From the IMG/VR virus record IMGVR_UViG_3300045988_054881: a DNA stretch of 33,689 nt. One strand, 5' to 3'. A program made the position numbers and the translations under genes. Shown here one piece after another: positions 11,256-30,287 of the stretch. Every line of letters begins with the position of its first letter. The first letter of the stretch is position 1. The stretch is from a virus. The notes below the pieces were generated by a model. It had not been told where the DNA came from. It did no database searches and saw only the letters and a list, made by a program, of their open reading frames with translations.

Positions 11256-12397
11256 TTCGGCCTGTATCTTCTAATTAAGTAATCAACTCCATACCGCAAA
11301 GCGTCTAGTGCATGGTTCCATGCGTCTATCGCTTCATTGGTATAAGTGTCGGTGGACTCGTCTTTGATCCACTTGTAGTTATCCAACTCGTCTAGTAGCT
11401 TAACGGAACGCTTGGTGACGTGCAACTTAAACTGCTTCACCTGTGCGATACCGCCTGCCACTGATCCCTTGCCCTTCACACACGGAATAGCTTTGATACG
11501 TCTTTGCTGTAGCTCAACGATAGATTTCTGTTCTGCGTTGTCGCAAACCGTGATCAGCTTGTTAAGCATGTTGCCTGTTAGGTAGTCCGCTATGTGGGAA
11601 TTAAGTAAACCCGTCTCATAGCAAAGAAGGTCAACGTACAGGTCCCATCCGTGAAAACGTATATCGACGATAGCGGTCGGATCATTCACGAAACCGAAGT
11701 CAAGACCTAGGCAACGTCCTGTGTAGGTTTCCGGCATATCCTCTATAACCTCGTATGCGGGATATACATTTCCTTCGACGCCACCTGTTTCGCCTTCACC
11801 GTAAACACGCCACCAGTTAGCATCGTTCCTGTTCTTCTCGATAGCGCCTACCTGCTCTTTGGTCAAGTATGGGTTATCCTTATACGTTGATCTGATAGTT
11901 ACGTATCGGTTGCCAACAAACTCAGTCTCACCCCAGAACTTCCTAACCGGGTTAAAGTCAATGATGACTTTCTTTCTCGTACGGATGTCTAGTTGTCTGA
12001 ATATCTCTCTAGGTATGCCTTGTGCCTCGTTCACAAAAAGAATGTCGCGTGCGGGCCCGTGTACCTTGCTAGAGTTATCAACGCCAAAGAACTCGATCAT
12101 ACAGCCATTAGGGTAGGTGTACGTTCCTTCCGACTTATTGAAAGCGTTCTCGTCCCAAACCCCCTCGGTAACTAGCATGGCCTTAAAGTCACGCTGCATG
12201 CCTCGTTTCACCATCGGCAGTGTAGCGGCTACACATGAGATGATCAGCGGCTTTTCGGAGTTGGTGCATAAGATGTGAAACAGTTGAAGGGCTGCCCACG
12301 TTTTGCCGGAACGTGTTCCACCTTTCGAGGCGACACCTCGTATCTTTGGATCAACGAAAGCAGCCAGAAGCTTCTCGAATGTATAGGTTACATTCAT
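11252..12397 (-). CDS. terL: Terminase large subunit.
   Basis: Walker A 'SKGGTRSGKT' and Walker B-like 'ILFVNEA'. Nuclease-domain motifs 'GLDFGFVNDPTAIV' and 'HALDALRYG'. 381 aa, with its start overlapping the TerS stop as TAATG. Confidence 0.88.
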   Translation of the reverse strand: MNVTYTFEKLLAAFVDPKIRGVASKGGTRSGKTWAALQLFHILCTNSEKPLIISCVAATLPMVKRGMQRDFKAMLVTEGVWDENAFNKSEGTYTYPNGCMIEFFGVDNSSKVHGPARDILFVNEAQGIPREIFRQLDIRTRKKVIIDFNPVRKFWGETEFVGNRYVTIRSTYKDNPYLTKEQVGAIEKNRNDANWWRVYGEGETGGVEGNVYPAYEVIEDMPETYTGRCLGLDFGFVNDPTAIVDIRFHGWDLYVDLLCYETGLLNSHIADYLTGNMLNKLITVCDNAEQKSIVELQQRRIKAIPCVKGKGSVAGGIAQVKQFKLHVTKRSVKLLDELDNYKWIKDESTDTYTNEAIDAWNHALDALRYGVDYLIRRYRPK

Positions 12398-13017
12398 TAG
12401 ATACCTCCTAGCTTCTTTAAGTTGTCGACGGCCTCAGCTGACAGTACGTTCACCTGCATGGCTTTCGTGCCTGCTTCTTTACCGTTGGACGTTACATCCT
12501 TCAAGTCGCGAAGGCCTCGAAGTTTTGCCATATAGGTAGCGTCTACCATTCCAGCTAGCGCGCTTTCGTCCATCTCGGTTGTGATCAACTCTTTTATGAG
12601 GCAATAACCTAGATATAAGTTCTCGGCATCCGGGTTCCCATCGGCTGCAAGCTTTTCAAGCTTTTCCATATTCTTGTTGAAATCCTTGATACTCCATCCG
12701 ATAAACAGGCAGAACCCACCGACGGAAGGTGCGCGCTTCTTATCAATAGGAATTTTCTCACCTGCCATGTTGCCGCCCTTCATTACCTCGTATGAGATAA
12801 ACGGGTTCGCCTCACAGAAGTTCATATACTCGGCAACGTAATCTATACACTCATCAATAGTGTTCAGCGTTGCGCCCTTAACGCCTCGTACCTGCATCAC
12901 CTCGTAAAGTTGTGAGCATTTAGCAATACTGGGTTTAGGCGTTGGCGCCTTTCCGGTCGCCTGCCCTTTTATGATACCCGCTTTAGTTTCGGGCTCTGAT
13001 TTTCTTTTTCCGGCCAT
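12397..13017 (-). CDS. terS: Terminase small subunit (putative).
   Basis: Lies immediately upstream of and overlapping terL. 'APSVGGFCLFIGWSIKDF' resembles the HTH segment of small terminases. I chose the ATG at 13017 ('MAGKRKSEPE'); the ORF-track start at 13062 is a TTG codon. Confidence 0.6.
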   Translation of the reverse strand: MAGKRKSEPETKAGIIKGQATGKAPTPKPSIAKCSQLYEVMQVRGVKGATLNTIDECIDYVAEYMNFCEANPFISYEVMKGGNMAGEKIPIDKKRAPSVGGFCLFIGWSIKDFNKNMEKLEKLAADGNPDAENLYLGYCLIKELITTEMDESALAGMVDATYMAKLRGLRDLKDVTSNGKEAGTKAMQVNVLSAEAVDNLKKLGGI

Positions 13018-13106
13018 ATAGTTATATTGTTCGTTAGTAATGTACGTACGCACGAGGAACAACTAGTTCGCGCGCGTGCAGTCCCCTGTATGGGACGTGT
13101 GCGGCA

Positions 13107-13138
13107 CAAAAGTACACCGCCAATCCGGCATATACAAA
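13107..13138 (-). promoter_or_regulatory. Canonical Bacteroidota promoter for the late (packaging/structural/lysis) unit.
   Basis: On the minus strand, TTTG (13138-13135), then 20 nt, then TACTTTTG (13114-13107). This matches the TTTG-N19-21-TAnnTTTG consensus and lies ~90 nt upstream of the terS ATG. Confidence 0.6.
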
Positions 13139-13314
13139 TACGGCATAGTTTTTCAAATAAACTCCTTTGTCGTTGGTTTATACACACGAAATACCTACAT
13201 TTGCGGCTCTCACATACCTGTGAGGCCGTTACAAACCTATTCTAAATTAAATAATAAATTACAAAAACGGTTTGTAACACTTATCTATCTCACTTTCAAG
13301 TACTTATCTAAAAG

Positions 13315-13701
13315 TGTGACAAACTAAAAAAGTCAGTAACCACTTTTGTAACCACTTTTGTCACAGCTAATCACCTGATCTATTGCAAATTACGCGCTTT
13401 TCACAAGTATGTGACAAAGAAAACGCCTCAAACACTTCCAACAGGAAATATATAGGTATATTGCTATCTCTACATAGCAATATATTCTCTTTTCTAATAT
13501 AAGTGTTAGGGCTATTTTATATACTTACTGTAACACATATATATAAATAATTGATATAGAGGTAGTTAGCTGTGACAAAAGTGGTTACTATCCTGTGACA
13601 TCAACATTTTTCCTTTTTGTTATTTCTACTGATTATCAATTAGTTAGGTGTGACAAAGGAAAAACGCTATACTGATTATCAGCAGGTTAAGTGTGACAAA
13701 C
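13315..13701. promoter_or_regulatory. Non-coding module A. It holds 7 TGTGACA sites, a 23-bp perfect inverted repeat, a conserved hairpin, an AT-rich tract and 42-nt-period direct repeats.
   Basis: No ORF of 60 aa or more falls between 13328 and 13907. Motif coordinates are given in the findings. A stretch of 183 nt is colinear with 29965-30163. Confidence 0.75.
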
Positions 13702-13814
13702 TTTTAGGCACGTAAAATTAATTACTGTGAATTTTTTACTTTTTCTCCTTTTCGAGCGGTACGCCCGCAATCGACTTTTTGAAAGATTTGTCGACGCACC
13801 GAAAATATAAAACA

Positions 13815-13854
13815 AAAGTGCTAATCTGACATTTTGCAATCAAATTAGCACTTT
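13815..13854 (-). terminator. Putative terminator ending the early unit.
   Basis: An 11-bp stem, 'aaagtgctaat' (13815-25) pairing with 'attagcacttt' (13844-54), encloses an 18-nt loop. On the minus strand it is followed by 'tgttttatatttt'. Confidence 0.45.
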
Positions 13855-13907
13855 TTGCTATCACCTTTAAATAGAACACCCTATTCGTAAAAGGCACTAT
13901 CATTTTA

Positions 13908-14345: not shown

Positions 14346-14466
14346 CTTTCATATTTTTAGTCATCTGCTTCGCTACCTCCCAGAGTACCACGCCAACGCC
14401 CGCCATGAACATTACAACAATCGCACCCGCAAACAACAGTTGCATTAATACTAATATTGCCTCCAT
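14323..14466 (-). CDS. Small single-pass membrane protein of 47 aa (absent from the ORF track).
   Basis: Hand translation gives MEAILVLMQLLFAGAIVVMFMAGVGVVLWEVAKQMTKNMKDDEMYDG*. Its ATG overlaps the upstream stop codon as ATGA (14464-14468). It fills an otherwise empty 120-nt gap. Confidence 0.45.
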   Translation of the reverse strand: MEAILVLMQLLFAGAIVVMFMAGVGVVLWEVAKQMTKNMKDDEMYDG

Positions 14467-14927
14467 CACATTAAAATTATTAGTTTAAACCCGTCTTTCC
14501 TCTTCGCTGCCTCTACCGGATTAATACATTCGGAGACATATATACCTCTCTCAGTTGGTATGTGATCCAAACCCGTAACGATCTGATCTATTATCGGCAG
14601 CCTGTATTTTGCCTCTATGAGTTTCGCCATCCACGACTTTCCCGTTCCGGGTTTCCCTATAATTAGAATACGCATAGGCTTTTCGTCTTCAGCGCGGTCT
14701 AGATCATATTTGCTCACGTACCAATACTTAGCCTGCTCGGTATCGGTAGACGGGATCAGTATAACATCTCCTAGGCTCAGTGCGTCCGCACTCCACCCCA
14801 CGGAAAAACCTTCTACAATTACTGATGCCCCGCGCCCTACAGAGTCATAACCTACTATCTTAACTTCTTCGCCACAAAAACAAAACGTTTCGCCTGCGTG
14901 TAGCTTCGCAAATTTAATATCATTCAT
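14466..14927 (-). CDS. Fusion of the novel 'FA..AG...VGY...GW' domain with a minimal P-loop segment.
   Basis: 153 aa. The N-terminus 'FAKLHAGETFCFCGEEVKIVGYDSVGRGASVIVEGFSVGW...YWYV' matches the domain seen in the next three genes. The C-terminal 'ILIIGKPGTGKSWMAKLIE' is a Walker A motif. Confidence 0.6.
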   Translation of the reverse strand: MNDIKFAKLHAGETFCFCGEEVKIVGYDSVGRGASVIVEGFSVGWSADALSLGDVILIPSTDTEQAKYWYVSKYDLDRAEDEKPMRILIIGKPGTGKSWMAKLIEAKYRLPIIDQIVTGLDHIPTERGIYVSECINPVEAAKRKDGFKLIILM

Positions 14928-15165
14928 ATACTTCTAATTCTTTAACGGTTGCATATCTTATTCGTCCCGCCTGCACTCTACAAGTGAAGACATGCGCGGG
15001 ATCATTTTTCATGTCTTCATATTTCCACCCACCCTTTAACCCGGTGACTATAACTCTCATGTTCCGTTCGGACTTTCTAACATATCCTACTACCCGGACT
15101 TTTTTACCTTCATACCGGGCTTCACGCCCGGCACATAAGGTTGCGAATGTCTTTGCACTTACCAC
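14920..15165 (-). CDS. Novel small-domain protein (array copy).
   Basis: 'FATLCAGREARYEGKKVRVVGYVRKSERNMRVIVTGLKGGW...IRYATVKELEVY'. The ORF-track start at 15204 is a TTG codon that overlaps the upstream gene by 46 nt. A GTG at 15165 gives an N-terminus comparable to the paralogs. The start remains uncertain. Confidence 0.5.
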   Translation of the reverse strand: MVSAKTFATLCAGREARYEGKKVRVVGYVRKSERNMRVIVTGLKGGWKYEDMKNDPAHVFTCRVQAGRIRYATVKELEVYE

Positions 15166-15449
15166 AGTGGTATTTCTTTTAGAGAAACCACCGCGGCATA
15201 CCAAAAACGTTTAGCTTTCGTTTTACACGTGAATTTGTCCTCGTAATCAAGATGGCGCCACCCCCTTCTGTGTGTTATGATTACTCTATCATAACTGTAG
15301 CCAACTACACGCACTCTACTTCCGTCTCCGTCAAATGTATAATAACGCCCCGCGTTATCCTCGGCAAACTGTCTTGCCGATACATCTTCGATTGGGATAA
15401 GCTGATCCCTGGTAACGTACAGACACCTTTCAACTTTGCCGTCCCACAT
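15159..15449 (-). CDS. Novel small-domain protein (array copy).
   Basis: 96 aa with an ATG start. 'FAEDNAGRYYTFDGDGSRVRVVGYSYDRVIITHRRGW...FWYAAVVSLKEI'. Confidence 0.55.
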   Translation of the reverse strand: MWDGKVERCLYVTRDQLIPIEDVSARQFAEDNAGRYYTFDGDGSRVRVVGYSYDRVIITHRRGWRHLDYEDKFTCKTKAKRFWYAAVVSLKEIPLW

Positions 15450-15476: not shown

Positions 15477-15953
15477 TTATAATACCTCCTCTAATTCTGT
15501 TTGACCTACATACCAGTATAAATCATATACGCTTTTCTTTAATACCTTATCCGTCGGGCTGAACATCTTGTGTGACCACCCCTTGAATTGTCTCCCAATG
15601 ATAATTGCCAAGTCTTCACGGTTGGCGTTTGAATACCCGCACAGGGTGACAAATTCGGGGCCCCCGCCTCTTGAAACATACTTGAACTTCTTTCCGGCTT
15701 TTTCCGTGGCAAACTCTTCGTCAGTTACGGGTTGAAGTTGATTAATCGCCGCCCACCAAAGGTGTTCGCCTCTAGAACTACAAACGAACGTTATCGGTAT
15801 GTGGGTGTACTGTGCTCCCCACCCAAGCGAAAAGCCGCTAACCAATATTTCTACACCTCGTTTTTCCTCGCTGTAACCTACTAACTTCACAATCTCATTG
15901 TGGTACCGGAAAAACTTTCCTGCATTCTCTTCTGCGAATTTTTTAGTTTCCAT
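15477..15953 (-). CDS. Protein with two tandem copies of the novel small domain.
   Basis: Copy 1 is 'FAEENAGKFFRYHNEIVKLVGYSEEKRGVEILVSGFSLGW...LWWAAINQL'. Copy 2 is 'FATEKAGKKFKYVSRGGGPEFVTLCGYS...IIIGRQFKGW...LYWYVGQTEL'. I chose the ATG at 15953 ('METKKF') because the ORF-track start at 15995 lies inside the promoter -7 box. Confidence 0.6.
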   Translation of the reverse strand: METKKFAEENAGKFFRYHNEIVKLVGYSEEKRGVEILVSGFSLGWGAQYTHIPITFVCSSRGEHLWWAAINQLQPVTDEEFATEKAGKKFKYVSRGGGPEFVTLCGYSNANREDLAIIIGRQFKGWSHKMFSPTDKVLKKSVYDLYWYVGQTELEEVL

Positions 15954-15981
15954 ATTAATTACTGTTTTTAATTTGATACTG

Positions 15982-16035
15982 CAAATATAACTCATTTAGA
16001 GATACGTTGTTTCTTTTGTTAACGTTATTTAAGAA
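15982..16035 (-). promoter_or_regulatory. Phage promoter cassette copy 1 (drives the small-domain array).
   Basis: The minus strand reads CTTAAATAAC-GTTAAC-N8-CAACGTAT-N12-TATATTTG, followed by the leader 'CAAATTAAAAAC'. The cassette overlaps the SNF2 stop codon. Confidence 0.65.
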
Positions 16036-17416
16036 CTTTGTATTTCTCCATAAGTTCTTTGATACTTTGCATTAACCCGTCCTGCGTTTCCTTCTTTTCG
16101 GAAAGCGCTTTGATTATCTTCTCGTCTACCGTACCCTTGCTTACTATGTGATGGATATACACAGGCTTTGTTTGTCCCTGCCTATATAGGCGTGCATTAA
16201 ACTGCATGTACAACTCGAGGCTCCACGTGTTACCAAACCACACAAGTATGTTACCACCTTTTTGAAGGTTAAGACCGTGCCCGGCTGATGCTGGATGCGT
16301 TACAAGCACTTGTATCTTGCCATTGTTCCATTGGGCTATGTGCTCGGGCTTTTCCAACTTCACGGGCTTATAAGCTTTCAAGGCGTCCATGATCCTATCA
16401 AGGTCGTGAATGAAGGAATACGCCACGAGAACAGGGGCACCGTTTGCCGCCTCTACAATTTCCTGCAACTTCTCTAGCTTCTCGTCATGGATATGCTTGA
16501 CATTGCGGTCGGCATCATATATGGCACCGTTGGCATACTGTTGAAGCTTATTGCTTAACGCGGCTGCGGATGCTGCGGTTATCATTTCGTCGGAGCTGAT
16601 CAACTCTAAAACCTGTTCCCGTTCAAAGTCCAAGTAGTTATCATATACTTTGTCGGAAAGTTCTACAGTATCGAACAACATGATCTTATCCGGCATCTTT
16701 AAATAGTCTTCGGCGGTCATGGATATGGTTATATCACTTATAAGGTCACTGATCTGCTTTTCCGTCTCGTCTGCGGGCTGTTTGAGTGCATAGGTATAAA
16801 CTATATCACCGTTACGCTTATCTGGGCGGAAAAACCTATCTCTGTAGCCCGTAATTGTTTTGCCCAACCGTTCCCCTTCGTCAATCAAGTACATCTGTGC
16901 AAACAGATCAATAAGCCCGTTGGGCGATGGCGTTCCAGTCAGTCCTACCACACGAGGAATAAACTTCCGGACACGTTTCATTGCCCGGAACCTTTTAGAC
17001 GCATGGTTTTTAAAGCTTGATAGCTCGTCAATAACCACCATATCAAAAGGTAATTTTATACCGCCATATTCCGTGACTAACCAAACAATGTTATCCCGGC
17101 TGACCGCATAAATATCTGCCTTCTTTGCCATCGCTGCCCTTCGGTGTTTAACGTCTCCATCTATAACAGAAATGGTTAGGTCTTGCAGGTGCGCCCAGTT
17201 CTTTATCTCGTCAGTCCAAGTTACTTGTGTAACCTTCTTCGGAGCGACAACTAGAGCGTTCGTAATTATACAGGCATCCATAAGTTCTTTGATGGCTGTC
17301 AATGTCGTAACGGTCTTCCCTAGCCCCATGTCTAGGAATAAGGCACAGAATGGGTTGTCGATAATATGCTGAACACCTCTGTTCTGATAACTATGTAATT
17401 GGTTTCTTTGTAACAT
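16025..17416 (-). CDS. SNF2/Rad54-family helicase.
   Basis: Motif I 'DMGLGKT', motif II 'VVIDELS', motif III 'LTGTPSPN', and C-terminal 'GHGLNLQ' and 'NARLYRQGQ'. 463 aa. Confidence 0.9.
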   Translation of the reverse strand: MLQRNQLHSYQNRGVQHIIDNPFCALFLDMGLGKTVTTLTAIKELMDACIITNALVVAPKKVTQVTWTDEIKNWAHLQDLTISVIDGDVKHRRAAMAKKADIYAVSRDNIVWLVTEYGGIKLPFDMVVIDELSSFKNHASKRFRAMKRVRKFIPRVVGLTGTPSPNGLIDLFAQMYLIDEGERLGKTITGYRDRFFRPDKRNGDIVYTYALKQPADETEKQISDLISDITISMTAEDYLKMPDKIMLFDTVELSDKVYDNYLDFEREQVLELISSDEMITAASAAALSNKLQQYANGAIYDADRNVKHIHDEKLEKLQEIVEAANGAPVLVAYSFIHDLDRIMDALKAYKPVKLEKPEHIAQWNNGKIQVLVTHPASAGHGLNLQKGGNILVWFGNTWSLELYMQFNARLYRQGQTKPVYIHHIVSKGTVDEKIIKALSEKKETQDGLMQSIKELMEKYKVLK

Positions 17417-17889: not shown

Positions 17890-18228
17890 CTACAAAGATA
17901 GCCCACGCCCTTGCAAGTTGGTATTATCCTTAACTTTATTTAAGAAAAATCTTATTGCCTTGTCCCGGCTTTCTATGTCATCAATAACGACTACAGTAAA
18001 GCCTAGCTGCCTTAACTTGTCATGGATAACCGTCTGAATCTTGGTAGGCTTCTTTCCTGTAGTCTTTATCTCAGCGAAGCCTACAAAGCCGCCACGGCAC
18101 AAGATAAGACGGTCGGGAAGACCTTTCACGAACGTGGATAACAGTTTGATCACCCATACATTTTTTGTCTGATTAAGGTAGGCACTGAACGTTTTTTCCA
18201 GTGCCTTTTCTCCTACTACCTCTCTCAT
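17890..18228 (-). CDS. VRR-NUC domain nuclease.
   Basis: 'GLPDRLILCRGGFVGFAEIKTTGKKPTKIQ' matches the VRR-NUC pattern (PD...E.K...Q). 112 aa. Confidence 0.75.
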   Translation of the reverse strand: MREVVGEKALEKTFSAYLNQTKNVWVIKLLSTFVKGLPDRLILCRGGFVGFAEIKTTGKKPTKIQTVIHDKLRQLGFTVVVIDDIESRDKAIRFFLNKVKDNTNLQGRGLSL

Positions 18229-19034
18229 TTGAGCGAATCAAATTTTACCTGCTGTACAGCTTCGTTATGAATCTTTGACATGGAAAATGTTTCCTTGTAG
18301 CGACCGTTTCCAAGCATCTCAATATACTTGTAACCAGTTACATATTTGCCCTTTTCTAGGAATTCGCGTAATCCCATAAACCTATAAAGTCTACAGTGGG
18401 ATATGATGTATTCGCCCTTTTCGTAACTTTTACTGTGGCCACCAAGTTTTAAGGTTTTCTCTAGACTACCCGCATGGTGTCTAAACCCATCACCCAATAT
18501 AGTTAGACCTAGCCTAAATGTGTATTCCGGGAAGCCTTCATATCTTGTAAAAGTCCAACTTCCGGGCGTGCTAGCTAATCTCAGATATACGTTAGCACCG
18601 TCATCGCACCCTAGGTAAGCGTACCAAGTTCCACAGCTTGCGAACACGCCATAAACTCCATATTTCACACTTTCACAATGCAGGTATGCTACCATTGGGG
18701 GCTTGCTCCGTTCGCATTGCACATATACAGTGAACTCGTCCTCTTCGGAAACAGCCCCAGTGTCAATGGGAGGTTTTCTGTATTCAAGCACAGGCTCTTT
18801 TTTAGCGGTAGTCTCTTCGGCTAGCTGTCTGATCCGTTCTCTACAGGTGTGGATAATCTTTTGATAATCCAAACTGCGTTCCTCACCTTCTTTGGTTCTC
18901 AGCACACGTTTCACGATATCGGCATCCCACGGGTTAAGATTATATTCTTTCCAGATATCCCACGGCTGGATTTTATGCTGTGCATAGTCCGACTTTCCGA
19001 TGTTGTAATCTCTAGTTTCATTCGATTGTTTCAT
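18225..19034 (-). CDS. Protein with a DUF3310-like N-terminal domain and an unknown ~170-aa C-terminal domain.
   Basis: The N-terminus 'YAQHKIQPWDIWKEYNLNPWDADIVKRVLRTKEGEERSLDYQKIIHTCRERI' fits the remembered DUF3310 pattern. The C-terminal part is rich in W/Y/G with no recognised motif. Confidence 0.5.
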   Translation of the reverse strand: MKQSNETRDYNIGKSDYAQHKIQPWDIWKEYNLNPWDADIVKRVLRTKEGEERSLDYQKIIHTCRERIRQLAEETTAKKEPVLEYRKPPIDTGAVSEEDEFTVYVQCERSKPPMVAYLHCESVKYGVYGVFASCGTWYAYLGCDDGANVYLRLASTPGSWTFTRYEGFPEYTFRLGLTILGDGFRHHAGSLEKTLKLGGHSKSYEKGEYIISHCRLYRFMGLREFLEKGKYVTGYKYIEMLGNGRYKETFSMSKIHNEAVQQVKFDSLK

Positions 19035-19799: not shown

Positions 19800-19926
19800 A
19801 ACTTAAATTTTAATAGTTTATAAAAAGAAGCCCGGTTATAAAATCCCTTTCACTTTTTTATATTTCCCTTTCGGGTTTCCTGTTTGCGGTTTCGGTGGCA
19901 AACAACCTTGCTTCGTTTTGGTATTG

Positions 19927-19980
19927 CAAATATAAGGGTTATTCTGATACGTTGTATATTTCGTTAACACTATTTAAGAA
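19927..19980 (-). promoter_or_regulatory. Phage promoter cassette copy (drives the lipoprotein gene), followed by a ~125-nt leader.
   Basis: The minus strand reads CTTAAATAGT-GTTAAC-N8-CAACGTAT-N12-TATATTTG. Confidence 0.65.
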
Positions 19981-20014
19981 TAAACCCTTATATTGCTTTT
20001 CTGTTAACAAGTCG

Positions 20015-22450
20015 TTAACTTTTAGCCTTTCGTACATACCCTCTTTGTTGTCCGTGAGCCTTGCAACGTCTTACACCCCTTTCCCATCCCGGCATACGGT
20101 TAAGCACGCCTGTTATGTCTGCGGCATCGGTACGTTTGATCTTTCCTATCTCGAGATCCAGTGCCTCAACTAAAACAGCGGGAGCGCTTACAAAGTCCAT
20201 GAGCATACACTTTTCCTTGTCTACCTCGTCTTCGTCATAATTGGCATAGTACATTTTCCGTTCCAGTTGGTTCATTTTATCCCAACACAAAGGTACATAC
20301 ATATCCACGTATTTCTGAATGGCAGATGTTCGCGGATCAGCTTCATAGTGTTCTTCCCTTCCGGCCTCAGCAATCATTTCAGCTTCCGGGCTTAATAACG
20401 TGCTGACCTTCCGATAGTACATCTGCACTGCTTCCGCCCAAAGTTGATCTATGTAATCGTCGAAAGCGGGCTCAAAGATAAGATGTGTGTTCGGGTTAAC
20501 CTTACATCTCACCGGAAGGAAACGCCTGCCGCCTGTTGCGTCTTTCAGAAACTCGTCCTTATTAGTTGTGCCTATGAAAACACACTGCCGCGGAAAGTTC
20601 TTTGTAACACGTCCGTAGGCAGGTCTGAAACTGTCCTCTGTCTTCGTTATGAAGTTTTTCACTAGCTCTACCTCAGCTTTTTTCATGGCTGATAGTTCGC
20701 CTACTTCAATAATCCAACTTCCCTGTAGCTGTTCAAAAGCCCGTGTTCCTTCCATTGAAATTAAACTGTCGGAAAACCAATTCTTGCCTAGCTTTTTGCA
20801 CAGTGTACTTTTTCCGGTGCCTTGATCAGCCACCATAACGAGCATACTGTCGAACTTGCATCCCTTCTGAAAGATACGCTTAACGGCACCTACAAGCATT
20901 ATCCGAAAAGCTTCCCGGGTATATATATTGTCCTCGGCACCCATTATATCAATAAGCACTGTATCTACGCGCGGCACTCCATCCCACACAAGGCCCGTTA
21001 GGTAACTTTGCACAGGGTGGAACGAGTTATGTTCAGCCGACAACGCAATGGCATCATCTATCTTTGCACTACTGTTTATCCCGTACATGTCTTCAATATG
21101 TTTGCGGACACCGGAAAAGTCAACGTCTTGAAAGTCGCTAGTGTTATCTTTCGGGCGCCAGATAGGAACACGTGTTACAACGCGTCTTTCCTTAAACAAG
21201 TCTCTAGCTATCAAACCTTTTAAGGCGGGATCATGCTGCATTATCAACCCTAGGTTCTTTGCGCTAGGCAGATAAGCACCTCGTTTATCGGTTTCTAGCC
21301 CGGCCATTGCATCCGTGTACTCTTCTGTTATGGCTTCCACGTCCGTTACTTCCGGCACTTCGTCGCTATATAGCTCCTCGAAATCGTCCACAATTGCAGC
21401 CGCTTTTGCCGTTAACCGGGTGGCCCTTGCTGCTGCTACCTTCTCATCCTTGTTAACTAGTTCAGACATGGCACCCATTGAAGGGCGCTTGTCCTGTCCC
21501 TTATCCATCTTTCCGAACAGGTGAACACGAACTAGGTCGAAAGCGTTGAATACATGGTTTCCTTGTATGGGATCATTGTTATGGAATGAATAAGCAAACA
21601 TATCGTCAAACGTCAGCATGCCACCGGACGTTGATCCGCCTGTGTAAGTCCATCGGTCTTCTTTATCTGTCGGCTCGTACACTTTCGGAAGATACTTTTC
21701 TATCGCTTCCGATATGGTGTACGCCCGGCAGAAATCGCCTACAATACCATCTTTCAGTGTAGGGTTCTGCTGTTCCTTCACTAGGTTGCGTGCTTCTCCT
21801 TTTTCGTCCTTGTGGTACGCCCATTCGGTTACATCGCGCCAATTCTCGTAATACCCCAGATACTTTTGAACGTCTAGTGTTTCCTCGTTCAGTTGGGAAA
21901 AGTCCACGAAATCAAAGTCTACATCTCGGGACACGGACGGGTAGAACATACAGCGTTCGGGTTGGAACGTGGTACGGTCGTACAAGTCAATACCTGTTAA
22001 CTCGGCTACTTTACGGGCAATCGCCTCATATTGTTCGCTGTCTACAGGCTCAGACAAGGGAATGATAACCCGATAACGGTAAACGTTCGCTTTCGGGTTA
22101 TGCTTGTGCGTGCCATGAATAATGCAGGCGCAATTAATAATGCCGTAAAACTTATCCGGGAAATCAGACTCTCCGAAATCTATGTCAAGAGCCAATAACG
22201 AGCGCTCACCGACGTTGTTCTTATTCCGCCTGTTACCGAATAGTTCGCCACCCATGAAGGCGCCAACGTCCTTAATGTTTCCCTGTTCGGTTTTGCTCGC
22301 ACTAATAAATTCACGATAGGTTTCCTCTGTAACTTTCGCCGACGTGAACTTTTCCACCAACTGCGCCCATGTAAATGACTTGTTTTTCCAAGCCGTTGAC
22401 TTCGCGTTGGTGGCGGTGGCAATCTTAAAAACCATTTTAGATAGTTCCAT
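20015..22450 (-). CDS. Primase-helicase (N-terminal primase-like domain plus a VirE/D5-type P-loop helicase).
   Basis: 'LALDIDFGE' provides an acidic catalytic-type motif. Walker A is 'ADQGTGKST'. 'ATGGRRFLPV' is the VirE-family signature. 811 aa. Confidence 0.8.
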   Translation of the reverse strand: MELSKMVFKIATATNAKSTAWKNKSFTWAQLVEKFTSAKVTEETYREFISASKTEQGNIKDVGAFMGGELFGNRRNKNNVGERSLLALDIDFGESDFPDKFYGIINCACIIHGTHKHNPKANVYRYRVIIPLSEPVDSEQYEAIARKVAELTGIDLYDRTTFQPERCMFYPSVSRDVDFDFVDFSQLNEETLDVQKYLGYYENWRDVTEWAYHKDEKGEARNLVKEQQNPTLKDGIVGDFCRAYTISEAIEKYLPKVYEPTDKEDRWTYTGGSTSGGMLTFDDMFAYSFHNNDPIQGNHVFNAFDLVRVHLFGKMDKGQDKRPSMGAMSELVNKDEKVAAARATRLTAKAAAIVDDFEELYSDEVPEVTDVEAITEEYTDAMAGLETDKRGAYLPSAKNLGLIMQHDPALKGLIARDLFKERRVVTRVPIWRPKDNTSDFQDVDFSGVRKHIEDMYGINSSAKIDDAIALSAEHNSFHPVQSYLTGLVWDGVPRVDTVLIDIMGAEDNIYTREAFRIMLVGAVKRIFQKGCKFDSMLVMVADQGTGKSTLCKKLGKNWFSDSLISMEGTRAFEQLQGSWIIEVGELSAMKKAEVELVKNFITKTEDSFRPAYGRVTKNFPRQCVFIGTTNKDEFLKDATGGRRFLPVRCKVNPNTHLIFEPAFDDYIDQLWAEAVQMYYRKVSTLLSPEAEMIAEAGREEHYEADPRTSAIQKYVDMYVPLCWDKMNQLERKMYYANYDEDEVDKEKCMLMDFVSAPAVLVEALDLEIGKIKRTDAADITGVLNRMPGWERGVRRCKAHGQQRGYVRKAKS

Positions 22451-25682: not shown

Positions 25683-25708
25683 AAAAAAGGCGGGCTGTCA
25701 CACCCGCC
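25683..25708 (-). terminator. Rho-independent terminator after the SSB gene.
   Basis: The minus strand reads 'ggcggg-tgtgacag-cccgcc' followed by 'tttttt'. The loop contains a TGTGACA sequence. Confidence 0.7.
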
Positions 25709-26260: not shown

Positions 26261-26326
26261 AACGTTTTATACTTTTTGTTTTTGGCCTCTATACGGTTCA
26301 GCCTTTCCGTTTTTAATTTGATGTTG

Positions 26327-26368
26327 CAAAGATAACAATAAAATCAATACGTTGGTTCTTTTGTTAGC
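26327..26368 (-). promoter_or_regulatory. Phage promoter cassette copy (drives the SSB gene).
   Basis: The minus strand reads GCTAAC-N8-CAACGTAT-N12-TATCTTTG, followed by the leader 'CAAATTAAAAACG'. Confidence 0.65.
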
Positions 26369-26373
26369 ATCTT

Positions 26374-27546
26374 TTATATTTTCTCGAATAAATCAAGCGT
26401 TGGCACTATTGCTTCCCGTGGATCATCTTCCAAAGCTAGAGTAGGCGCGCCTGCGGGCTTTTTGATAACGTCTTTCAGTGTTGCCGCAAATGGCTTTTTG
26501 CCTACCATCTTTTCAAGATCACCGATACCTTTCAGCTTGTGATTTTTTAGATCATCCTCAGCAAACCCTAGTCCGGTTAATAGTTCGATTGCTTTCGCTT
26601 CGTCTGATATAACCCGGACGCTTCGCCCTTCTACTAATTTCCATCCCGGCACGGTTTTTCCTTCTAGAGCTGACTTCATGGCATGTTCTTTGATAGACGA
26701 TAACCAACTGGTGAACATATCGGACTTTTTTAGCAACTCCCCTATCTCGTCTAGGGTTAGGGTGTTTGTATCGCCATGAGTTTCAAATTCAGATACTAGA
26801 GCATCCTTCTGCGCACGGCAAAGAGGTTTATGCTTGCAGAACTTGCAGTGTGATCCGGTGACACACTCACCTTCACCCTTAAAAGCTTTTTCAGCCACCG
26901 GACGCAACGTGTGGATAGCCCAATGCGTTAAATCTCGTGCAGGCATCTCGAAGGTAGGGAAGTGACCTAATCTAACTTGTGCGATATGCATACGTACTGT
27001 TTCTATTTCCGCCTGCCTTTTTGGAGGAAGTGACCGAAGGACGCCTAACGCATACATCATAAGTTGCGAATTATTTACAGCCTCTACCTTAACGCCTTTT
27101 CCGTACTTCAAGTCTATAATATCAAGCACCTTTTCCGATACTATATCGCAGTCACAACTGCCCGAACATTCCGGGACGTACATAGATAGATCAAACTTCC
27201 TCTCTAATCCCATTGTAGCGCCTTCTTTTACCTCGAAAAGATCACAGACATAGCAAACGTAATCCGTTACATACTTATCCATCTCAGGGTCGTAATAAGG
27301 GCTGCTTTTGATGTTTTCCGGTGTCGGAAGGTTATCAAGAAGCGGCATGTAGTTTCCGGCTAGATACTCAGTCAACGCATATTCGGCTAACTCGTGGGCG
27401 GTTGTTCCTTCCTCAGCCGCTGAACTGCTTGTTTCCTCGTAACTCTCTTCCAATCTTGCCGACGGTGTACAAGTCATCCACCGTTTTGATCCGGATGGAG
27501 AGAGTAGGGAATGTGCTCTCTCCGTGTGGTTTATTGTTTCTGACAC
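26374..27546 (-). CDS. PD-(D/E)XK nuclease with a C-terminal Cys cluster (DUF2800/Cas4-like).
   Basis: 'LLSPSGSKRWMTCTPS' at the N-terminus, 'DIIDLKYGKGVKVEAVNNSQLMMYALG' as the D..D.K core, and 'CKFCKHKPLC'. The start codon is GTG at 27546. Confidence 0.8.
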   Translation of the reverse strand: MSETINHTERAHSLLSPSGSKRWMTCTPSARLEESYEETSSSAAEEGTTAHELAEYALTEYLAGNYMPLLDNLPTPENIKSSPYYDPEMDKYVTDYVCYVCDLFEVKEGATMGLERKFDLSMYVPECSGSCDCDIVSEKVLDIIDLKYGKGVKVEAVNNSQLMMYALGVLRSLPPKRQAEIETVRMHIAQVRLGHFPTFEMPARDLTHWAIHTLRPVAEKAFKGEGECVTGSHCKFCKHKPLCRAQKDALVSEFETHGDTNTLTLDEIGELLKKSDMFTSWLSSIKEHAMKSALEGKTVPGWKLVEGRSVRVISDEAKAIELLTGLGFAEDDLKNHKLKGIGDLEKMVGKKPFAATLKDVIKKPAGAPTLALEDDPREAIVPTLDLFEKI

Positions 27547-27547
27547 A

Positions 27548-28036
27548 TTAGTCCTTGTAAGTGATTAGACGTTGTTTCAACAAAGCAAACTTTGCAGGCG
27601 CAATTTTCATTAAAGAAGTACCGCCAAACTCATGGAAAATACTCATGATCTCGTCTCTAGTGAGCTTGCCGGACTTGGATAGAGAAATAACTAAATCCTG
27701 CATTTCCTTCGTGGTCGGTTGTTCGTCCGTGCTCGTTTCAGTTTCCGGTGCAGGTTCAACTACAGGTTCCGGTGCAGGTTCAACTACAGGTGCAGGTTCA
27801 ACTACATGTTCCGGTGCGGGTGCTGCTTTCCCTGCTTTTACCTTTCTTGGTGCTTTCTCTGTAACGGGTACAGCGGCTATTTCCTTGACCTCTACAGGAC
27901 TTTCTACCTTTAGTTGTGCGGTTGTGTCACATGGGATATTAGAACTCAAATTTGCGCCCGAAATAACGCTTTTCACAAATTCCACCTCGTGCAAGTTGCT
28001 TGCATCGAAATCCAACTCAAAAACTTTAATTTTCAT
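27548..28036 (-). CDS. Hypothetical early protein with a Pro/Glu/Val-rich repeat linker.
   Basis: 'APEHVVEPAPVVEPAPEPVVEPAPETE' is encoded by 18-24-nt tandem repeats at ~27742-27820. I chose the ATG at 28036 ('MKIKVFELDF'); the ORF-track start at 28048 is a TTG codon. Confidence 0.5.
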   Translation of the reverse strand: MKIKVFELDFDASNLHEVEFVKSVISGANLSSNIPCDTTAQLKVESPVEVKEIAAVPVTEKAPRKVKAGKAAPAPEHVVEPAPVVEPAPEPVVEPAPETETSTDEQPTTKEMQDLVISLSKSGKLTRDEIMSIFHEFGGTSLMKIAPAKFALLKQRLITYKD

Positions 28037-28325: not shown

Positions 28326-28526
28326 TTATCCGTTTTTACATGCTCTTTTTAGAGCGATTAGGTCTTTAACTTTCGGGTTATCCGAATTTTTGGTAGCGTC
28401 GATAAGTGTCATATCTGTAACGGTAGCGTACCAACACTTGCTAGTTACCGGACTCTCAAAACATACACGATAAGCACCGTGTCCGATAAGCCTAAACGAA
28501 AAGTCATAAATACTAATTCTCTTCAT
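28326..28526 (-). CDS. Small early protein, paralog of 29513..29758.
   Basis: 66 aa. The shared pattern is 'IS..DF.F...G...Y.V...SP.....W...V....LI.....NS..P...DL.AL...CKNG'. Confidence 0.55.
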   Translation of the reverse strand: MKRISIYDFSFRLIGHGAYRVCFESPVTSKCWYATVTDMTLIDATKNSDNPKVKDLIALKRACKNG

Positions 28527-28553
28527 AATTTCTACTTTTTAATTGTTATGGTA

Positions 28554-28607
28554 CAAAGACAAGGAATAAAACAATACGTTGTTCTTTTTGTTAACGTAAT
28601 TTAAGAA
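28554..28607 (-). promoter_or_regulatory. Phage promoter cassette copy.
   Basis: The minus strand reads CTTAAATTAC-GTTAAC-N8-CAACGTAT-N12-TGTCTTTG, followed by the leader 'ACAATTAAAAAG'. The upstream gene's TAA stop lies inside GTTAAC. Confidence 0.6.
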
Positions 28608-29106
28608 AGTTGTTTTTCTGAATTTTGTCAATCCATGCTTTAGGAACGATAGGGAGCGTGTCTATATACTGCTTGATATAAACCTTGCGCCCGTTTGAAT
28701 CGAAGGAATACCAACCTACGTTGCTATACTTGAAAAAAGACCTATAATCTTTGTTTAGCTTAACAACCTTACTGACTATATCGTTCACATCCACTTTCCC
28801 TACACAACCAGACTGTGCTAAATCAGATGCTTTCTTGATAAGTAGTAAGGCTTCCAAAAAGCACGGGTTGTCTCTCAAATAAACCAAGCATTCCTGCGTA
28901 TAGTGGGACGTGTCGCATAGGTCTACGGGTTTAGCTTTTTTCGATGCGCGTTTCAGTAACTCTTCGGTCATCTCTGCGGGGAAAACATACCGCCCGTTAT
29001 TGGGGAGATTTACCCGTACGATGACGGTTCCTGTTTTGGTGGAATCCATTAATTCCGGTGACACAATAATGTCGGCAATCTGATTTTTTAAACTTCTAGC
29101 TTTCAT
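28591..29106 (-). CDS. Hypothetical early protein.
   Basis: 171 aa with an ATG start and its own cassette promoter. Confidence 0.5.
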   Translation of the reverse strand: MKARSLKNQIADIIVSPELMDSTKTGTVIVRVNLPNNGRYVFPAEMTEELLKRASKKAKPVDLCDTSHYTQECLVYLRDNPCFLEALLLIKKASDLAQSGCVGKVDVNDIVSKVVKLNKDYRSFFKYSNVGWYSFDSNGRKVYIKQYIDTLPIVPKAWIDKIQKNNFLKLR

Positions 29107-29140
29107 AACGTTTACTTTTTGCTTTTTAATTTTGATACTA

Positions 29141-29194
29141 CAAAGATACGTATTATTCCGATACGTTGGTTATTTTGTTAACCTTATTTAAGAA
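29141..29194 (-). promoter_or_regulatory. Phage promoter cassette copy.
   Basis: The minus strand reads CTTAAATAAG-GTTAAC-N8-CAACGTAT-N12-TATCTTTG, followed by the leader 'CAAAATTAAAAAG'. Confidence 0.65.
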
Positions 29195-29758: not shown

Positions 29759-29785
29759 TTGAATTACTTTTTAATTGTTATGCTG

Positions 29786-29840
29786 CAAAGGTAGGAAAAG
29801 ATATGGTATGTTATACATTTCGTTATGTTACATTAACACT
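29786..29840 (-). promoter_or_regulatory. Degenerate cassette-type promoter of the first early gene, overlapped by an operator-like palindrome.
   Basis: The -7 box TACCTTTG (29786-29793) is followed by the leader 'ACAATTAAAAAG'. The upstream boxes are altered (CATAAC / TAACATAC) but keep the same N8/N12 spacing. Confidence 0.55.
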
Positions 29841-30234
29841 TTTGTGCGTGTAACAGCTAAATTGTTGCATATCAAGGCATTATAAAAACGTGTGACAGAT
29901 TCAAATGTTATAGTAACATAAATGTAACACTGTAAGTTGTTGTAGGTCTGTGGGTTACTAGCGCTGTGACAAAAACACGCCTAAAATTCCCTTATACTTT
30001 TATTTCGTTGTTTTGCAATTTATACCCCTATATTGTAATCTCTGATATTACAATAATCTATTTTCTCGAATAAGTATAGGGCTATTTTTATATATTTGCT
30101 GTAACAGATATAGTTAAGTAGTTGTAATAGAGCAAGTTAGCTGTGACAAAAGTGGTTACTATCTCAAATGTTAATGTAACATAATCTCATAAGTTATTAT
30201 AAATGAGCTGTTTAACTGTGACAACGGTGTGACA
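29825..30234. promoter_or_regulatory. Non-coding module B. It holds 5 TGTGACA sites, 3 ATGTTA-N3-TAACA(T/C) palindromes, a conserved hairpin and the 29-nt core shared with module A.
   Basis: No ORF of 60 aa or more falls between 29759 and 30287. Coordinates are given in the findings. Confidence 0.75.
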
Positions 30235-30240: not shown

Positions 30241-30279
30241 AACGAAAACAGGGAAGCACCATTTTTGGCACCTCCCTGT
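30241..30279 (-). terminator. Terminator ending the late unit, specific to the minus strand.
   Basis: A 14-bp stem pairs 30248-61 with 30266-79. Three positions are G-U pairs in the minus-strand RNA but A-C mismatches in the plus sense. It is followed by 'uuucguuu' and lies 9 nt after the stop at 30288. Confidence 0.65.
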
Positions 30280-30287
30280 TTTTCTAT

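Follow-up and report, generated by a model that had tools for sequence, protein, structure and literature searches.

The window (the whole stretch of 33,689 nucleotides that was analysed) contains a complete, circularly permuted genome of a Bacteroides siphophage, 33634 bp in size, with every gene carried by the minus strand. Two intergenic regions, IGR1 and IGR2, which together comprise 1249 nt (3.7% of the genome), each contain an origin-like module that sits between a terminator and the next promoter. The modules are 16571 bp apart, i.e., about half the genome. Module 1 is located 160-590 nt upstream of the late -7 box at 13107, and a second candidate late -7 box is found at 13232. The features referred to below are as follows.

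12397-13062: terS (weak GP3_package match), which starts just downstream of module 1
13107..13114, minus strand: Bacteroides-type -7 box of the late promoter, TACTTTTG in coding-strand reading; relatives have it in the conserved form TAnnTTTGTGCC
13273..13698: module 1 (IGR1), between the replication-operon terminator and the late (terS) promoter, with 9 TGTNACA sites
Sites of module 1: 13273 TGTAACA; 13315; 13359 inverted TGTCACA; 13410 (A); 13529 TGTAACA (B); 13571 (C1); 13594 (D); 13649; 13692
13457..13484: hairpin/palindrome with an 11-bp stem between A and B, with a paralogue at 30031-30055
13536..13570: AT-rich core of module 1, between the reverse site B (13529) and the forward site C1 (13571)
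13571..13588, plus strand: C1 (TGTGACA) and the degenerate C2 (TGGTTAC), 11 bp apart, part of the 23-mer TTAGCTGTGACAAAAGTGGTTAC
13627..13700, plus strand: two 31-nt direct repeats, each ending in GTGTGACAAA, putative additional forward iterons towards the terminator in module 1
13814..13855, minus strand: intrinsic-terminator hairpin that closes the replication operon, beyond module 1 as seen from the late promoter
20015..22450, minus strand: VapE-like primase-helicase of 811 aa, the proposed initiator
20018..20245, minus strand: C-terminal domain of this protein (residues 736-811), the proposed iteron reader, modelled as a three-helix bundle with a beta-hairpin wing (GWERGVRRCKAHGQQRGYVRK)
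28591-29106: early protein of 171 aa without family assignment
29786..29793, minus strand: -7 box of the first early promoter, TACCTTTG; module 2 starts about 35 nt upstream of it
29826..30234: module 2 (IGR2), between the late-operon terminator and the first early promoter, with 10 TGTNACA sites
Sites of module 2: 29826; 29849; 29891; 29923; 29965 (A); 30100 (B); 30142 (C1); 30175 (D); 30217; 30228
30107..30141: AT-rich core of module 2, between B (30100) and C1 (30142)
30245..30282, minus strand: intrinsic-terminator hairpin that closes the late operon, beyond module 2 as seen from the early promoter

The GC skew is monotonic along the window and gives no origin position; it is uninformative because one strand holds all the genes.

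Clustering of TGTGACA and its variants

The initial annotation listed twelve copies of TGTGACA in the two intergenic regions, and all of its coordinates are exact: 13315, 13410, 13571, 13594, 13649, 13692, 29891, 29965, 30142, 30217, and 30228 on the plus strand, and 13359-13365 in the inverted orientation. The comparison with shuffled controls that it proposed as a check of the enrichment gave a clear result, as the window contains 16 sites, while dinucleotide shuffles contain 3.5 on average and 10 at most, and 0/100 shuffles reached 16. Twelve of the 16 sites (TGTSACA, either orientation) are located within the two intergenic regions (binomial p = 1e-14), for which a first-order Markov model of these regions themselves predicts 0.21 sites, with a maximum of 3. 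All 9 copies of TGTGACAA are in the two regions as well. The motif is concentrated in these regions, but it is not confined to them, as had been claimed, since four exact copies lie outside, at 3561(-), 25696-25702(-), 27925(-), and 33599(+). The second of them is the copy noticed earlier in the loop of the SSB terminator; it is indeed present on the minus strand, but one base away from the position assigned to it. Because the number of the outside copies equals the chance expectation, we do not treat any of the four as a functional site.

The family of sites is wider than the one recognised initially. Of 27 TGTNACA sequences in the genome, 19 are in the two regions, because the TGTAACA and TGTTACA variants gather in both of them too. 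The comparison with the 98%-related genome L071 revealed differences at 5/132 site positions and at 92/724 flanking positions (Fisher p = 0.0016), which, at the level of sequence comparison, indicates that the sites are under constraint.

Layout and geometry of the two modules

Paralogy between the two regions extends over about 200 nt (79% identity across 111 nt), and they have in common the 23-mer that contains C1 and C2: its identical copy is at 30137-30159 and its inverted copy at 13348-13370. In both modules the AT-rich core separates a reverse site from a forward one. The 40-nt windows over 13510-13569 have a GC content of 0.20-0.225, the lowest in module 1 (about 0.45 for the genome), so that the AT-richest stretch of this module falls inside the B-to-C1 pair, with its core of 35 bp. 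The reverse-oriented sites of the window are mostly the variant TGTAACA and not the exact inverted TGTCACA, and its B position is a single, variant reverse site of this type; the exact TGTCACA is present at B in L071 (one module) and in the relative L074.

A period of 42 nt was initially attributed to the long direct repeats on the terminator side of module 1, but these repeats (13627-13657 and 13670-13700) are in fact 43 nt apart. The spacing of exactly 42 bp characterises other sites, namely six TGTAACA-N35-TGTGACA pairs (13273/13315, 13529/13571, 29849/29891, 29923/29965, 30100/30142, and 30175/30217). Six identical spacings were obtained in 0/20000 random placements. The remaining spacings between neighbours (11, 23, 32-33, 43-44, and 55 bp) are near multiples of the helical turn. 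The hairpin between A and B differs in stem sequence between its two copies, with the pairing kept (z of -3.9 and -5.7).

Site exchange among related phages and covariation with proteins

About 75 related genomes share the module layout, but nine or more site sequences are in use among them. Within a genome, both modules have one and the same site sequence (21/21 cases, with one tie-break artefact that concerns the window itself). The alignment of 14 modules from 9 genomes indicates four homologous positions (A, forward; B, reverse, followed by the AT-rich core; C, forward twice; D, reverse), which hold a different 7-mer in each lineage. The non-site backbone of the modules tracks the orthology of IGR1 and IGR2. 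Most of the relatives examined have B and C1 spaced by 41-45 bp; this distance is 49-53 bp in L003, L074, and one module of BU1-1. In the case of L051, opposed iterons are clear, with CTGGTCAtCTGGTCA followed by the AT-rich core and then by TGACCAG..GCCCAG. The possibility of a structured RNA was rejected, as the search of Rfam at the gathering threshold gave no match in the window, and the exchanges of the site sequence at homologous positions follow no logic of base pairing.

The site sequence differs also among phages of one host species: B. uniformis phage BU183P1 has CTGGTCA, while C2_18_80S2P, BU1-1, and EMB1 have CTGTGCA. The reader of the sites is therefore not a host factor, and host-factor sites were rejected on this ground. 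Other elements read by the host were considered as well. As 11/12 sites give TTTG... on the transcribed strand, they might be taken for Bacteroides promoter boxes (TTTGTCACA on the coding strand); however, 0 of the TTTGTCACA sites of IGR1, the region that was read, have TA in the TAnnTTTG register, and genuine -7 boxes are located elsewhere, at 13107 and 29786, so that the promoter-box reading was rejected too. Inverted repeats of an invertible promoter are suggested by the inverted repeats that flank segments of 183 nt and 324 nt, a size typical of Bacteroides invertons. Nevertheless, these flanking repeats differ between the modules and are made of iterons, a recombinase was not found among the proteins scanned against Pfam and PHROG, and the modules of 9/9 aligned genomes are in one and the same orientation. 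Taken with the motif variation within a host species, these observations make it scarcely credible that the sites are elements read by the host. The view of the initial annotation that the pattern represents the recognition site of a DNA-binding protein can thus be upheld and narrowed to a phage-encoded, sequence-specific binder, given that the site varies between relatives and is identical in both modules of each genome.

In a comparison of 23 window-anchored protein families, the nearest-neighbour agreement with the site class was best for the VapE-like primase-helicase (48/53), the next value being 35/46. In a closely related subgroup, the relatedness-normalised AUC was 0.80 for residues 736-811 of this protein and 0.27-0.56 for the others, including its residues 1-735. 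[quoted passage not shown] Particular wing sequences go with particular site classes; for example, the window has GWERGVRR...GQQ, while L004 and BU183P1, which belong to other classes, have GWERATRR...GLQ and GRR, respectively. Among the genomes that were added later, BU183P1 and C2_18_80S2P have wings already paired with a class, and their sites are of that class; L071 has both the wing and the site of the window, and L073 and L074 have new wings, consistent with the pairing of wing and site. The overall identity of the C-terminal domain does not split the TGTGACA genomes from the TGTTACA ones (68% between the window and L074, 67% between the window and L073), and in the case of this one-base difference only individual residues of the domain could matter. 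A finer covariation, that of CTGTGCAG or CTGTGCAT (G or T as the eighth base) with the wing tripeptide, is weak, the numbers being too small.

Since the recognition regions of small terminases typically hold repeated small sites, and module 1 is immediately upstream of terS, the sites could be envisaged as pac- or cos-type packaging signals bound by the small terminase. However, TerS does not follow the site class (nearest neighbour 11/26, normalised AUC 0.37), and there is a second full module at a distance of half a genome from the genes of the terminase. We consider this reading very improbable, and terS with a pac site was rejected for these two reasons.

More attention is deserved by a dedicated regulator, i.e., an unrecognised small early protein for which the sites would be operators controlling the early and late promoters, with the helicase tail co-varying only by linkage. 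The location of both modules between terminator and promoter would suit such a regulator, as would the start of module 2, which precedes the early -7 box by about 35 nt, and the 171-aa early protein is encoded only by the three genomes with TGTGACA sites, namely those of the window, L071, and L074. Yet homologues of that protein are absent from relatives that have the same layout and iterons of their own. Neither Pfam nor PHROGs shows an HTH or regulator family among the proteins, and the small early families exhibit no covariation with the site class (whole-protein AUC of at most 0.62, and at most 0.744 for any scan window, vs. 0.82 for the helicase tail). Moreover, genes that adjoin the modules co-vary less than the helicase tail encoded 6-7 kb away, which argues against simple linkage. 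The small early proteins were therefore rejected as the binder, as they combine the lack of a DNA-binding family in Pfam and PHROGs, the lack of covariation, and, for the 171-aa protein, absence from module-bearing relatives; a dedicated regulator seems quite unlikely to us.

A candidate initiator-helicase and comparison with known systems

The product of the helicase gene matches helicase and primase families of PHROG overall, with matches to the 'DNA primase' families in its N-terminal part (residues 6-442). Residues 484-702 correspond to the Pfam VapE-like_dom (E = 1.4e-76), and the ATPase core (residues 396-735) matches the structure of the SaPI1 Rep-DNA complex, PDB 7PDS (7pds_A, E = 1.6e-76). 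In the AlphaFold2 model of residues 662-811 (pLDDT 93), helices and a beta-hairpin are predicted; its alignment came from a search with the full-length protein, as the C-terminal 162 aa gave 3 hits in a word-indexed search. The best six among the Foldseek matches listed for this model are chains of 7PDS (probability 1.0, TMq 0.64-0.68), and weak, lower matches include winged-helix DNA-binding domains, e.g., forkhead. The C-terminal tail of the helicase is thus confidently modelled as a winged helix, like the origin-binding domain of SaPI1 Rep. The earlier statement that no HTH regulator is recognisable among the gene products is accurate at the level of Pfam and PHROG families, but it overlooked the predicted winged helix at the end of this 811-aa protein. 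The helicase gene is 6.3 kb from the downstream module and 7.4 kb from the upstream one, and TGTGACA is absent between 13698 and 25696, so none of its copies adjoins this gene (20015-22450).

The closest parallel is provided by the Rep-ori systems of staphylococcal pathogenicity islands, the SaPIs (SaPI1 Rep and the primase-helicase fusion PriRep5), where the initiator itself is the SF3/VapE-like replicative helicase. The C-terminal winged helix of SaPI Rep binds iterons of 5-6 nt, and in the SaPI ori two or more iterons on either side of an AT-rich centre face in opposite directions (PMC9371898). Further hallmarks of this type of system are that the ori is bound specifically and melted without ATP and that replication depends on it. 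The predicted structure of the phage C-terminal domain superposes on that of Rep1. The iterons are short in both cases, six to twelve per SaPI ori and 9 and 10 TGTNACA in the phage modules (12 exact TGTSACA). The AT-rich centre between opposed iterons is also common to both, with a single, variant reverse site at B in the window. In both cases the iteron sequence and the C-terminal domain vary between related elements, on the phage side as judged by covariation. The differences concern the arrangement, as the SaPI has one ori immediately downstream of rep, while the phage has two full paralogous modules, one located 6.3 kb downstream of the helicase gene and the other 7.4 kb upstream, both of them bounded by a terminator and a promoter, and the element is a Bacteroides siphophage and not an island of Gram-positive bacteria. 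Additionally, the putative binding sites of the phage are 7-9 bp long and near-palindromic (TGTNACA).

The alpha protein of phage P4 and ORF904 of the archaeal plasmid pRN1 unite primase, SF3 helicase, and a C-terminal winged helix, and for ORF904 cognate sites have never been found (PMC2777425). With P4 alpha, the phage protein shares the presence of these three functions in one polypeptide, the primase being assigned by the PHROG match of residues 6-442; the P4 primase, though, is of the DnaG type. The best 50 of 280 Foldseek matches do not include 1KA8, the origin-binding domain of P4. ORF904 and other prim-pol/SF3/winged-helix replication proteins have the same domain order and a terminal winged helix proposed for origin recognition; for the phage, in contrast to ORF904, the sites are evident and the binding protein is the part that we infer. 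P4, with its small genome, has one and the same short iteron in two cis regions that are apart from each other. The occurrence of one site class in two modules 16.5 kb apart in 21/21 genomes resembles P4 ori and crr, but crr is an iteron array and not a copy of the whole ori layout. Iteron plasmids (RepA, pi, and TrfA) and the lambda O-ori system are similar in having repeated initiator sites beside an AT-rich unwinding element and specificity groups that differ between relatives. However, their initiators are not helicases and recruit host DnaB, and their iterons are direct repeats of 17-22 bp. What sets the phage apart from the SaPI and P4 initiator-helicases is that it has two complete modules and that each of them is remote from the gene of the helicase.

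Altogether, we find it probable that TGTGACA(AA) and its TGTAACA and TGTTACA variants are iterons of the phage's own VapE-like primase-helicase, which would act as a self-loading initiator-helicase of the SaPI-Rep/P4-alpha type. Of the two alternatives offered by the initial annotation, an origin iteron or the site of a global regulator, we favour the former because the C-terminal winged helix of the helicase is the sole co-varying segment, because the protein is homologous to SaPI1 Rep, and because the modules have the layout of a SaPI ori. Each module, of 400-430 bp, presents opposed sites around an AT-rich core of about 35 bp, with the helically phased 42-bp spacing, and further phased sites on both sides. 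Helicase subunits may dock via their winged helices onto the iterons and assemble on either side of the core, which they would then melt. Having loaded itself, the protein would then serve as the replicative helicase and would also prime synthesis. The two modules may be two origins or may divide the labour as one origin and an auxiliary cis element similar to crr of P4. A regulatory side-role of the sites is possible, because both modules are just upstream of the early and late promoters.

Alternatively, the winged helix of the helicase may bind the sites chiefly for regulation, in the form of autoregulation, an early-to-late switch, or 'handcuffing' for copy control, with neither or only one of the modules being an origin. 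Iteron-binding initiators of plasmids often autoregulate, and crr, the second iteron region of P4, is reportedly not itself an origin; both facts speak for such a role, as does the position of the modules at the heads of both transcription units and at a distance of 16571 bp, about half of the 33634-bp genome. On the other hand, the origin-like layout is complete in both modules, down to an AT-rich core enclosed by opposed sites, and the -33/-7 elements of the late promoter core are free of overlap with the sites. Binding for mainly regulatory purposes is therefore, in our opinion, unlikely.

Returning to the initiator-helicase with its iterons, we may also envisage, as a speculative and doubtful extension, that it uses the two modules as a pair. 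The firing of replication could then be joined to the gating or coupling of the early-to-late switch or to a looping of the genome like that of P4 ori/crr, and the winged-helix/iteron classes could represent incompatibility or anti-cross-talk types. If so, the at least nine specificity classes would keep co-circulating gut Bacteroides phages, when they co-infect a cell, from hijacking the initiator of their relatives. A duplicated module beside both promoters also raises the question of the coupling of replication and transcription in a phage coded on one strand.

In our literature search, no origin was found for these Bacteroides phages. Results of our analysis provide a candidate function for the two largest non-coding regions of a phage family that is widespread in the human gut, with isolates on B. 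uniformis and database matches also to B. xylanisolvens and Phocaeicola, and point to the VapE-like primase-helicase as the likely initiator. They may also permit a typing of replication specificity in these phages from the sequence. The approximately 75 genomes, with at least nine matched pairs of iteron and winged helix, constitute a natural data set for the reading of 7 bp by a small winged helix and for the joint change of specificity in a protein and some 20 dispersed sites.

Site arrays at the borders of the transcription units

Since bases 1-55 recur exactly at 33635-33689, the window is one complete genome with a unit length of 33634 bp, circular or circularly permuted. All its long ORFs are on the minus strand. 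Its closest database relatives are Bacteroides and Phocaeicola phages of 33-36 kb, with a patchy DNA identity of ~76%, and two of these, BU1-1 and EMB1, examined end to end, have the same gene order. The first minus-strand unit comprises small early genes from 29758, followed by those of a PD-(D/E)XK exonuclease, a DUF2815 SSB, a 363-aa protein (exonuclease, Metallophos, in the BU1-1 annotation), PolA, the 811-aa VapE-like protein, VRR-NUC, and SNF2; small genes close this replication operon at 13908. The second, also on the minus strand, comprises terS, terL, structural genes, lysis genes, and the gene of a DUF6549 protein with its end at 30288. This gene order identifies the two big non-coding gaps as the borders of both transcription units.

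Intergenic regions of the window and their transcription signals
13188-13907: IGR1, past the replication operon, ahead of terS
13814-13855: strong terminator hairpin, transcriptional start of IGR1
13107: Bacteroides-type -7 box TAnnTTTG, transcriptional end of IGR1, kept in relatives as TAnnTTTGTGCC
29759-30287: IGR2, past the late operon, ahead of the first early gene
30245-30282: strong terminator hairpin, transcriptional start of IGR2
29786: Bacteroides-type -7 box TAnnTTTG, transcriptional end of IGR2

The TGTGACA sites reported in the initial annotation are all at the positions it gave, and their enrichment is borne out by genome-wide counting against shuffled sequences (16 copies on both strands vs. 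3.5 on average and never more than 10). The two gaps, 1249 nt in total, contain twelve of the 16 (binomial p = 1e-14), against 0.2 predicted from a Markov model of the gap sequence. The proposed confinement to intergenic regions holds for these twelve but not for four exact copies outside (3561, 25696, 27925, and 33599), whose number corresponds to chance, and hence no special role has to be assumed for the copy in the SSB terminator loop. The nine copies of TGTGACAA are in the gaps only, and the same gaps contain 7 of the 11 copies of the TGTAACA/TGTTACA variants. Altogether, TGTNACA occurs there 19 times, which is 15.2 per kb vs. 0.25 per kb elsewhere. Comparison with L071, a 98%-related contig, revealed differences at 5 of 132 site bases and at 92 of 724 flanking bases (p = 0.0016).

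IGR1 and IGR2 are paralogous along about 200 nt. Aligning them with their homologues in eight other genomes defined a common module.

Arrangement of the common module (window + orientation)
Position A: one or two forward sites
Backbone after A: conserved, with a hairpin (13457-13484 / 30031-30055) in the window's clade
Position B: one or two reverse sites
Core after B: about 35 bp with a GC of 0.20-0.225, one of the most AT-rich stretches of the region
Position C: two forward sites, 11-13 bp apart
Spacer between C and D: T-rich
Position D: one or two more sites
Extra sites: beyond the A-D arrangement, on both sides

The six TGTAACA-N35-TGTGACA pairs of the window are all spaced by exactly 42 bp start to start (six equal spacings never arose in 20000 random placements), and the other neighbour distances (11, 23, 32-33, 43-44, and 55) are near whole helical turns. 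The distance within the long repeat pair, previously described as a 42-nt period, is 43 nt. Across the AT-rich core, B and C1 are 42 bp apart in both window modules and mostly 41-45 bp apart in the relatives examined; the related contigs L003 and L074 and one BU1-1 module have 49-53 bp. As the exact inverted TGTCACA occupies position B in the siblings L071 (one module) and L074, TGTAACA of the window is best read as a reverse-oriented site in which the central base is tolerated. The early promoter is 35 nt and the late promoter 160 nt downstream of the respective module.

The in-module hairpin has a stem of 11 bp in one copy and of 9 bp in the other, and the stem sequences differ (GCTAT/ATAGC vs. 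GTAAT/ATTAC) with pairing preserved. Conservation of its CTATCTCT loop region extends to the other members of the window's clade (L003, L011), but the backbone of the BU1-1 clade lacks the element. Long-range inverted repeats, made of iteron blocks, differ between the modules: 13348-13376 / 13560-13588 (29 nt at 93%) brackets 183 nt, and 29823-29841 / 30166-30184 (19 nt at 95%) brackets 324 nt. They superficially resemble Bacteroides inverton repeats and may have a role in looping or double-hexamer assembly. The modules are 16571 bp apart in the 33634-bp genome, almost diametrically opposite on the circle. A GC-rich hairpin, GGCTCTCACATACCTGTGAGGCC (13203-13225), closely follows a second candidate -7 box (13232, TAGGTTTG) in the direction of transcription and precedes the conserved -7 box of the late promoter (13107).

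Site classes and their covariation with phage proteins

Our comparison included 68 IMG/VR loci around the VapE-like gene, full BU1-1 and EMB1 genomes, four closer metagenomic contigs, and two further isolates, with site classes based on 7-mers. Both gaps and the module are present in all genomes with contigs spanning these regions, while the enriched 7-mer varies: TGTGACA (window, L071, L074), TGTTACA (L004, L073), TGGAACA, CTGTGCCAC, CTGTGCA, CTGTGTA, CTGTGTC, CTGGTCA, or CGGAACA. Both modules share the class in 21 of the 21 genomes that have both on the contig, the sole formal discordance being a tie of the window's own two variants. The non-site backbone clusters by position (IGR1 with IGR1, IGR2 with IGR2), which indicates that the duplication is old and that the sites, some ten to twenty per genome, were replaced in a concerted manner. 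The class differs between genomes even on one host species (B. uniformis isolate BU183P1 has CTGGTCA; BU1-1, EMB1, and C2_18_80S2P have CTGTGCA), and therefore the site reader should be a phage-encoded, family-wide protein.

The site, switched in concert in both modules, covaries exclusively with the C-terminal domain (residues 736-811) of the VapE-like helicase (20015-22450, minus strand). Every shared protein family was tested for agreement with site class. Among 23 window-anchored families the VapE-like protein ranked first (48 of 53 nearest neighbours shared the class, vs. 35 of 46 for the next family), and of its 25-residue windows those at residues 757-781 and 776-797, at the C-terminal end, discriminated best. 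In a subgroup of four classes with proteins 90-95% identical, where pair identity was corrected by the genome pair's median over other families, residues 736-811 split same- from different-class pairs with an AUC of 0.80, as compared to 0.45 for residues 1-735 and 0.27-0.56 for all other families; all AUC values, here and below, are descriptive, as many contigs share one source metagenome and are non-independent. De novo clustering, independent of the window, yielded 36 single-copy families and 1116 windows, of which the top five (0.78-0.82) were all within the C-terminal 45 alignment columns of the VapE-like protein; the next best window of any protein scored 0.744, and whole-protein scores reached at most 0.62. 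Linkage by proximity does not explain this pattern, because module-adjacent genes covary less strongly than the VapE-like C-terminal segment, itself 6-7 kb from either module.

The VapE-like C-terminal domain as a putative iteron reader

Both fold and homology relate the helicase C-terminal domain to SaPI1 Rep. The 811-aa protein matches the Pfam VapE-like_dom (E = 1.4e-76), PHROG 'DNA helicase' along its full length, and 'DNA primase' families at residues 6-442, while residues 396-735 match the SaPI1 Rep-DNA complex (PDB 7PDS, E = 1.6e-76). In the AlphaFold2 model of residues 662-811 (75-sequence alignment, mean pLDDT 93), the C-terminal end is predicted to form two helices plus a beta-hairpin (residues about 773-807). 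Strong Foldseek matches were confined to the six chains of 7PDS (probability 1.0, TMq 0.64-0.68); the weak ones included winged-helix DNA-binding domains, e.g., forkhead. In winged helices, the last helix is the recognition helix and the hairpin is the wing, and it is to the predicted last helix and hairpin that the co-varying residues map.

Variants of the VapE-like segment 'GWxRxxxxx...GxxRG' and paired site classes
NGK: CTGTGCAG
(D/E)A(K/R) + GW(K/R)R: CTGTGTAA
GRR: CTGGTCA
NARP: CTGTGTC
GWERSRQRVKSYGQQ: CTGTGCCAC
GWER(G/S)VRR..GQQ: TGTGACA
GWERATRR..GLQ: TGTTACA

Five genomes were fetched after this wing/class table had been made. BU183P1 and C2_18_80S2P have wings already tabled and the class as paired, L071 has both the wing and the site of the window, and the new wings of L073 (GWERATRR..GLQ with TGTTACA) and L074 (GWERSVRR..GQQ with TGTGACA) fit the table. 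Overall identity of the C-terminal domain did not discriminate TGTGACA from TGTTACA, which differ by one base, and the eighth-base covariation test was underpowered. The evidence for the origin reading, comparative throughout, covers the clustering, phasing, paralogy, and conservation of the sites, and supports the initial recognition-site proposal in its 'origin iteron' form. With moderate confidence, sequence comparisons point to the VapE-like helicase, through its C-terminal domain, as the binder.

SaPI Rep is initiator and helicase in one, with a C-terminal winged helix that reads 5-6-nt iterons; the SaPI ori contains 6-12 iterons, with an AT-rich centre and at least two oppositely pointing iterons per side, and two hexamers, one per side, probably self-load (Qiao et al., PMC9371898). 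Except for direct binding, the SaPI features listed by these authors were all found here, self-loading as part of the proposed mechanism. However, the SaPI ori is immediately downstream of rep, a defining placement that the phage does not share, as it has no sites within 6 kb of the VapE-like gene. In P4, a single iteron type, present both in ori and in the separate crr, is bound by the alpha protein; crr is an iteron array only, whereas the phage has two complete modules. The domain order of P4 alpha (primase, SF3 helicase, winged helix; PMC2777425) is that of the VapE-like protein; the best 50 of 280 Foldseek matches did not include the P4 origin-binding domain. By its likely mode of action, we place the system with the SaPI-Rep/P4-alpha origins; the proposed initiator is a SaPI1 Rep homologue, and the difference is in the number and placement of cis elements. 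The winged helices would dock onto the phased sites, and the subunits would gather to either side of the 35-bp AT-rich core, which they would then melt; the helicase would load itself, and the N-terminal primase would begin synthesis. Both modules may fire in this way, or one may act as an auxiliary or regulatory element. A limited literature search found no description of origins or iterons of these Bacteroides phages.

Other early proteins, promoter units, and repeats

The 171-aa early protein (28591-29106, minus strand) has no family match and was found in three TGTGACA genomes only (window; L071, 77%; L074, 57%), with none in other relatives covering that region. It is excluded as the conserved site reader, since relatives with the same module lack a homologue, and could be an accessory factor.

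An early/middle promoter unit of ~80 nt is present in seven copies.

Copies of the promoter unit (all read on the minus strand)
15954-16036
19900-19981
26299-26381
28526-28608
29113-29195
29438-29520
29758-29840

On the minus strand, these units contain the Bacteroides -7 box TAnnTTTGCAG, no obvious -33 TTTG, and a conserved GTTAAC(A/G)AAA...ACGTAT about 25-50 nt upstream. The enrichment of GTTAACA in relatives regardless of iteron class suggests that this element is the site of a second, conserved factor.

The 269-aa protein (18225-19034, minus strand) is a mosaic: its identity is 40-45% to the relatives that are closest elsewhere (45% to L071, the 98% sibling), and 69-75% to a distant clade (L052-L058, L069), which points to horizontal exchange of its gene. 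Two families of paralogous small proteins, both without Pfam matches, are encoded on the minus strand: a pair of 81 aa and 66 aa (29513-29758 / 28326-28526) and a four-member family (15477-15995 / 15159-15449 / 14920-15204 / 14466-14927) with the common motif V(K/R)(L/I/V)VGY...GW, one member of which (153 aa) has a P-loop.

In some relatives, the terS-side intergenic region contains an additional long array of a different repeat (L050, 12532-12996; L036, 19153-19893; L061, 18936-19639). In L050, this region has 17 copies of every 7-mer of GGACTATCCCGGTATT; the window has no array of this type. Three tandem 39-nt repeats are located at the window start (42-158), and a 12-nt-period repeat at 27725-27820 codes for a PAPEPVVE-type low-complexity linker in a 166-aa early protein.
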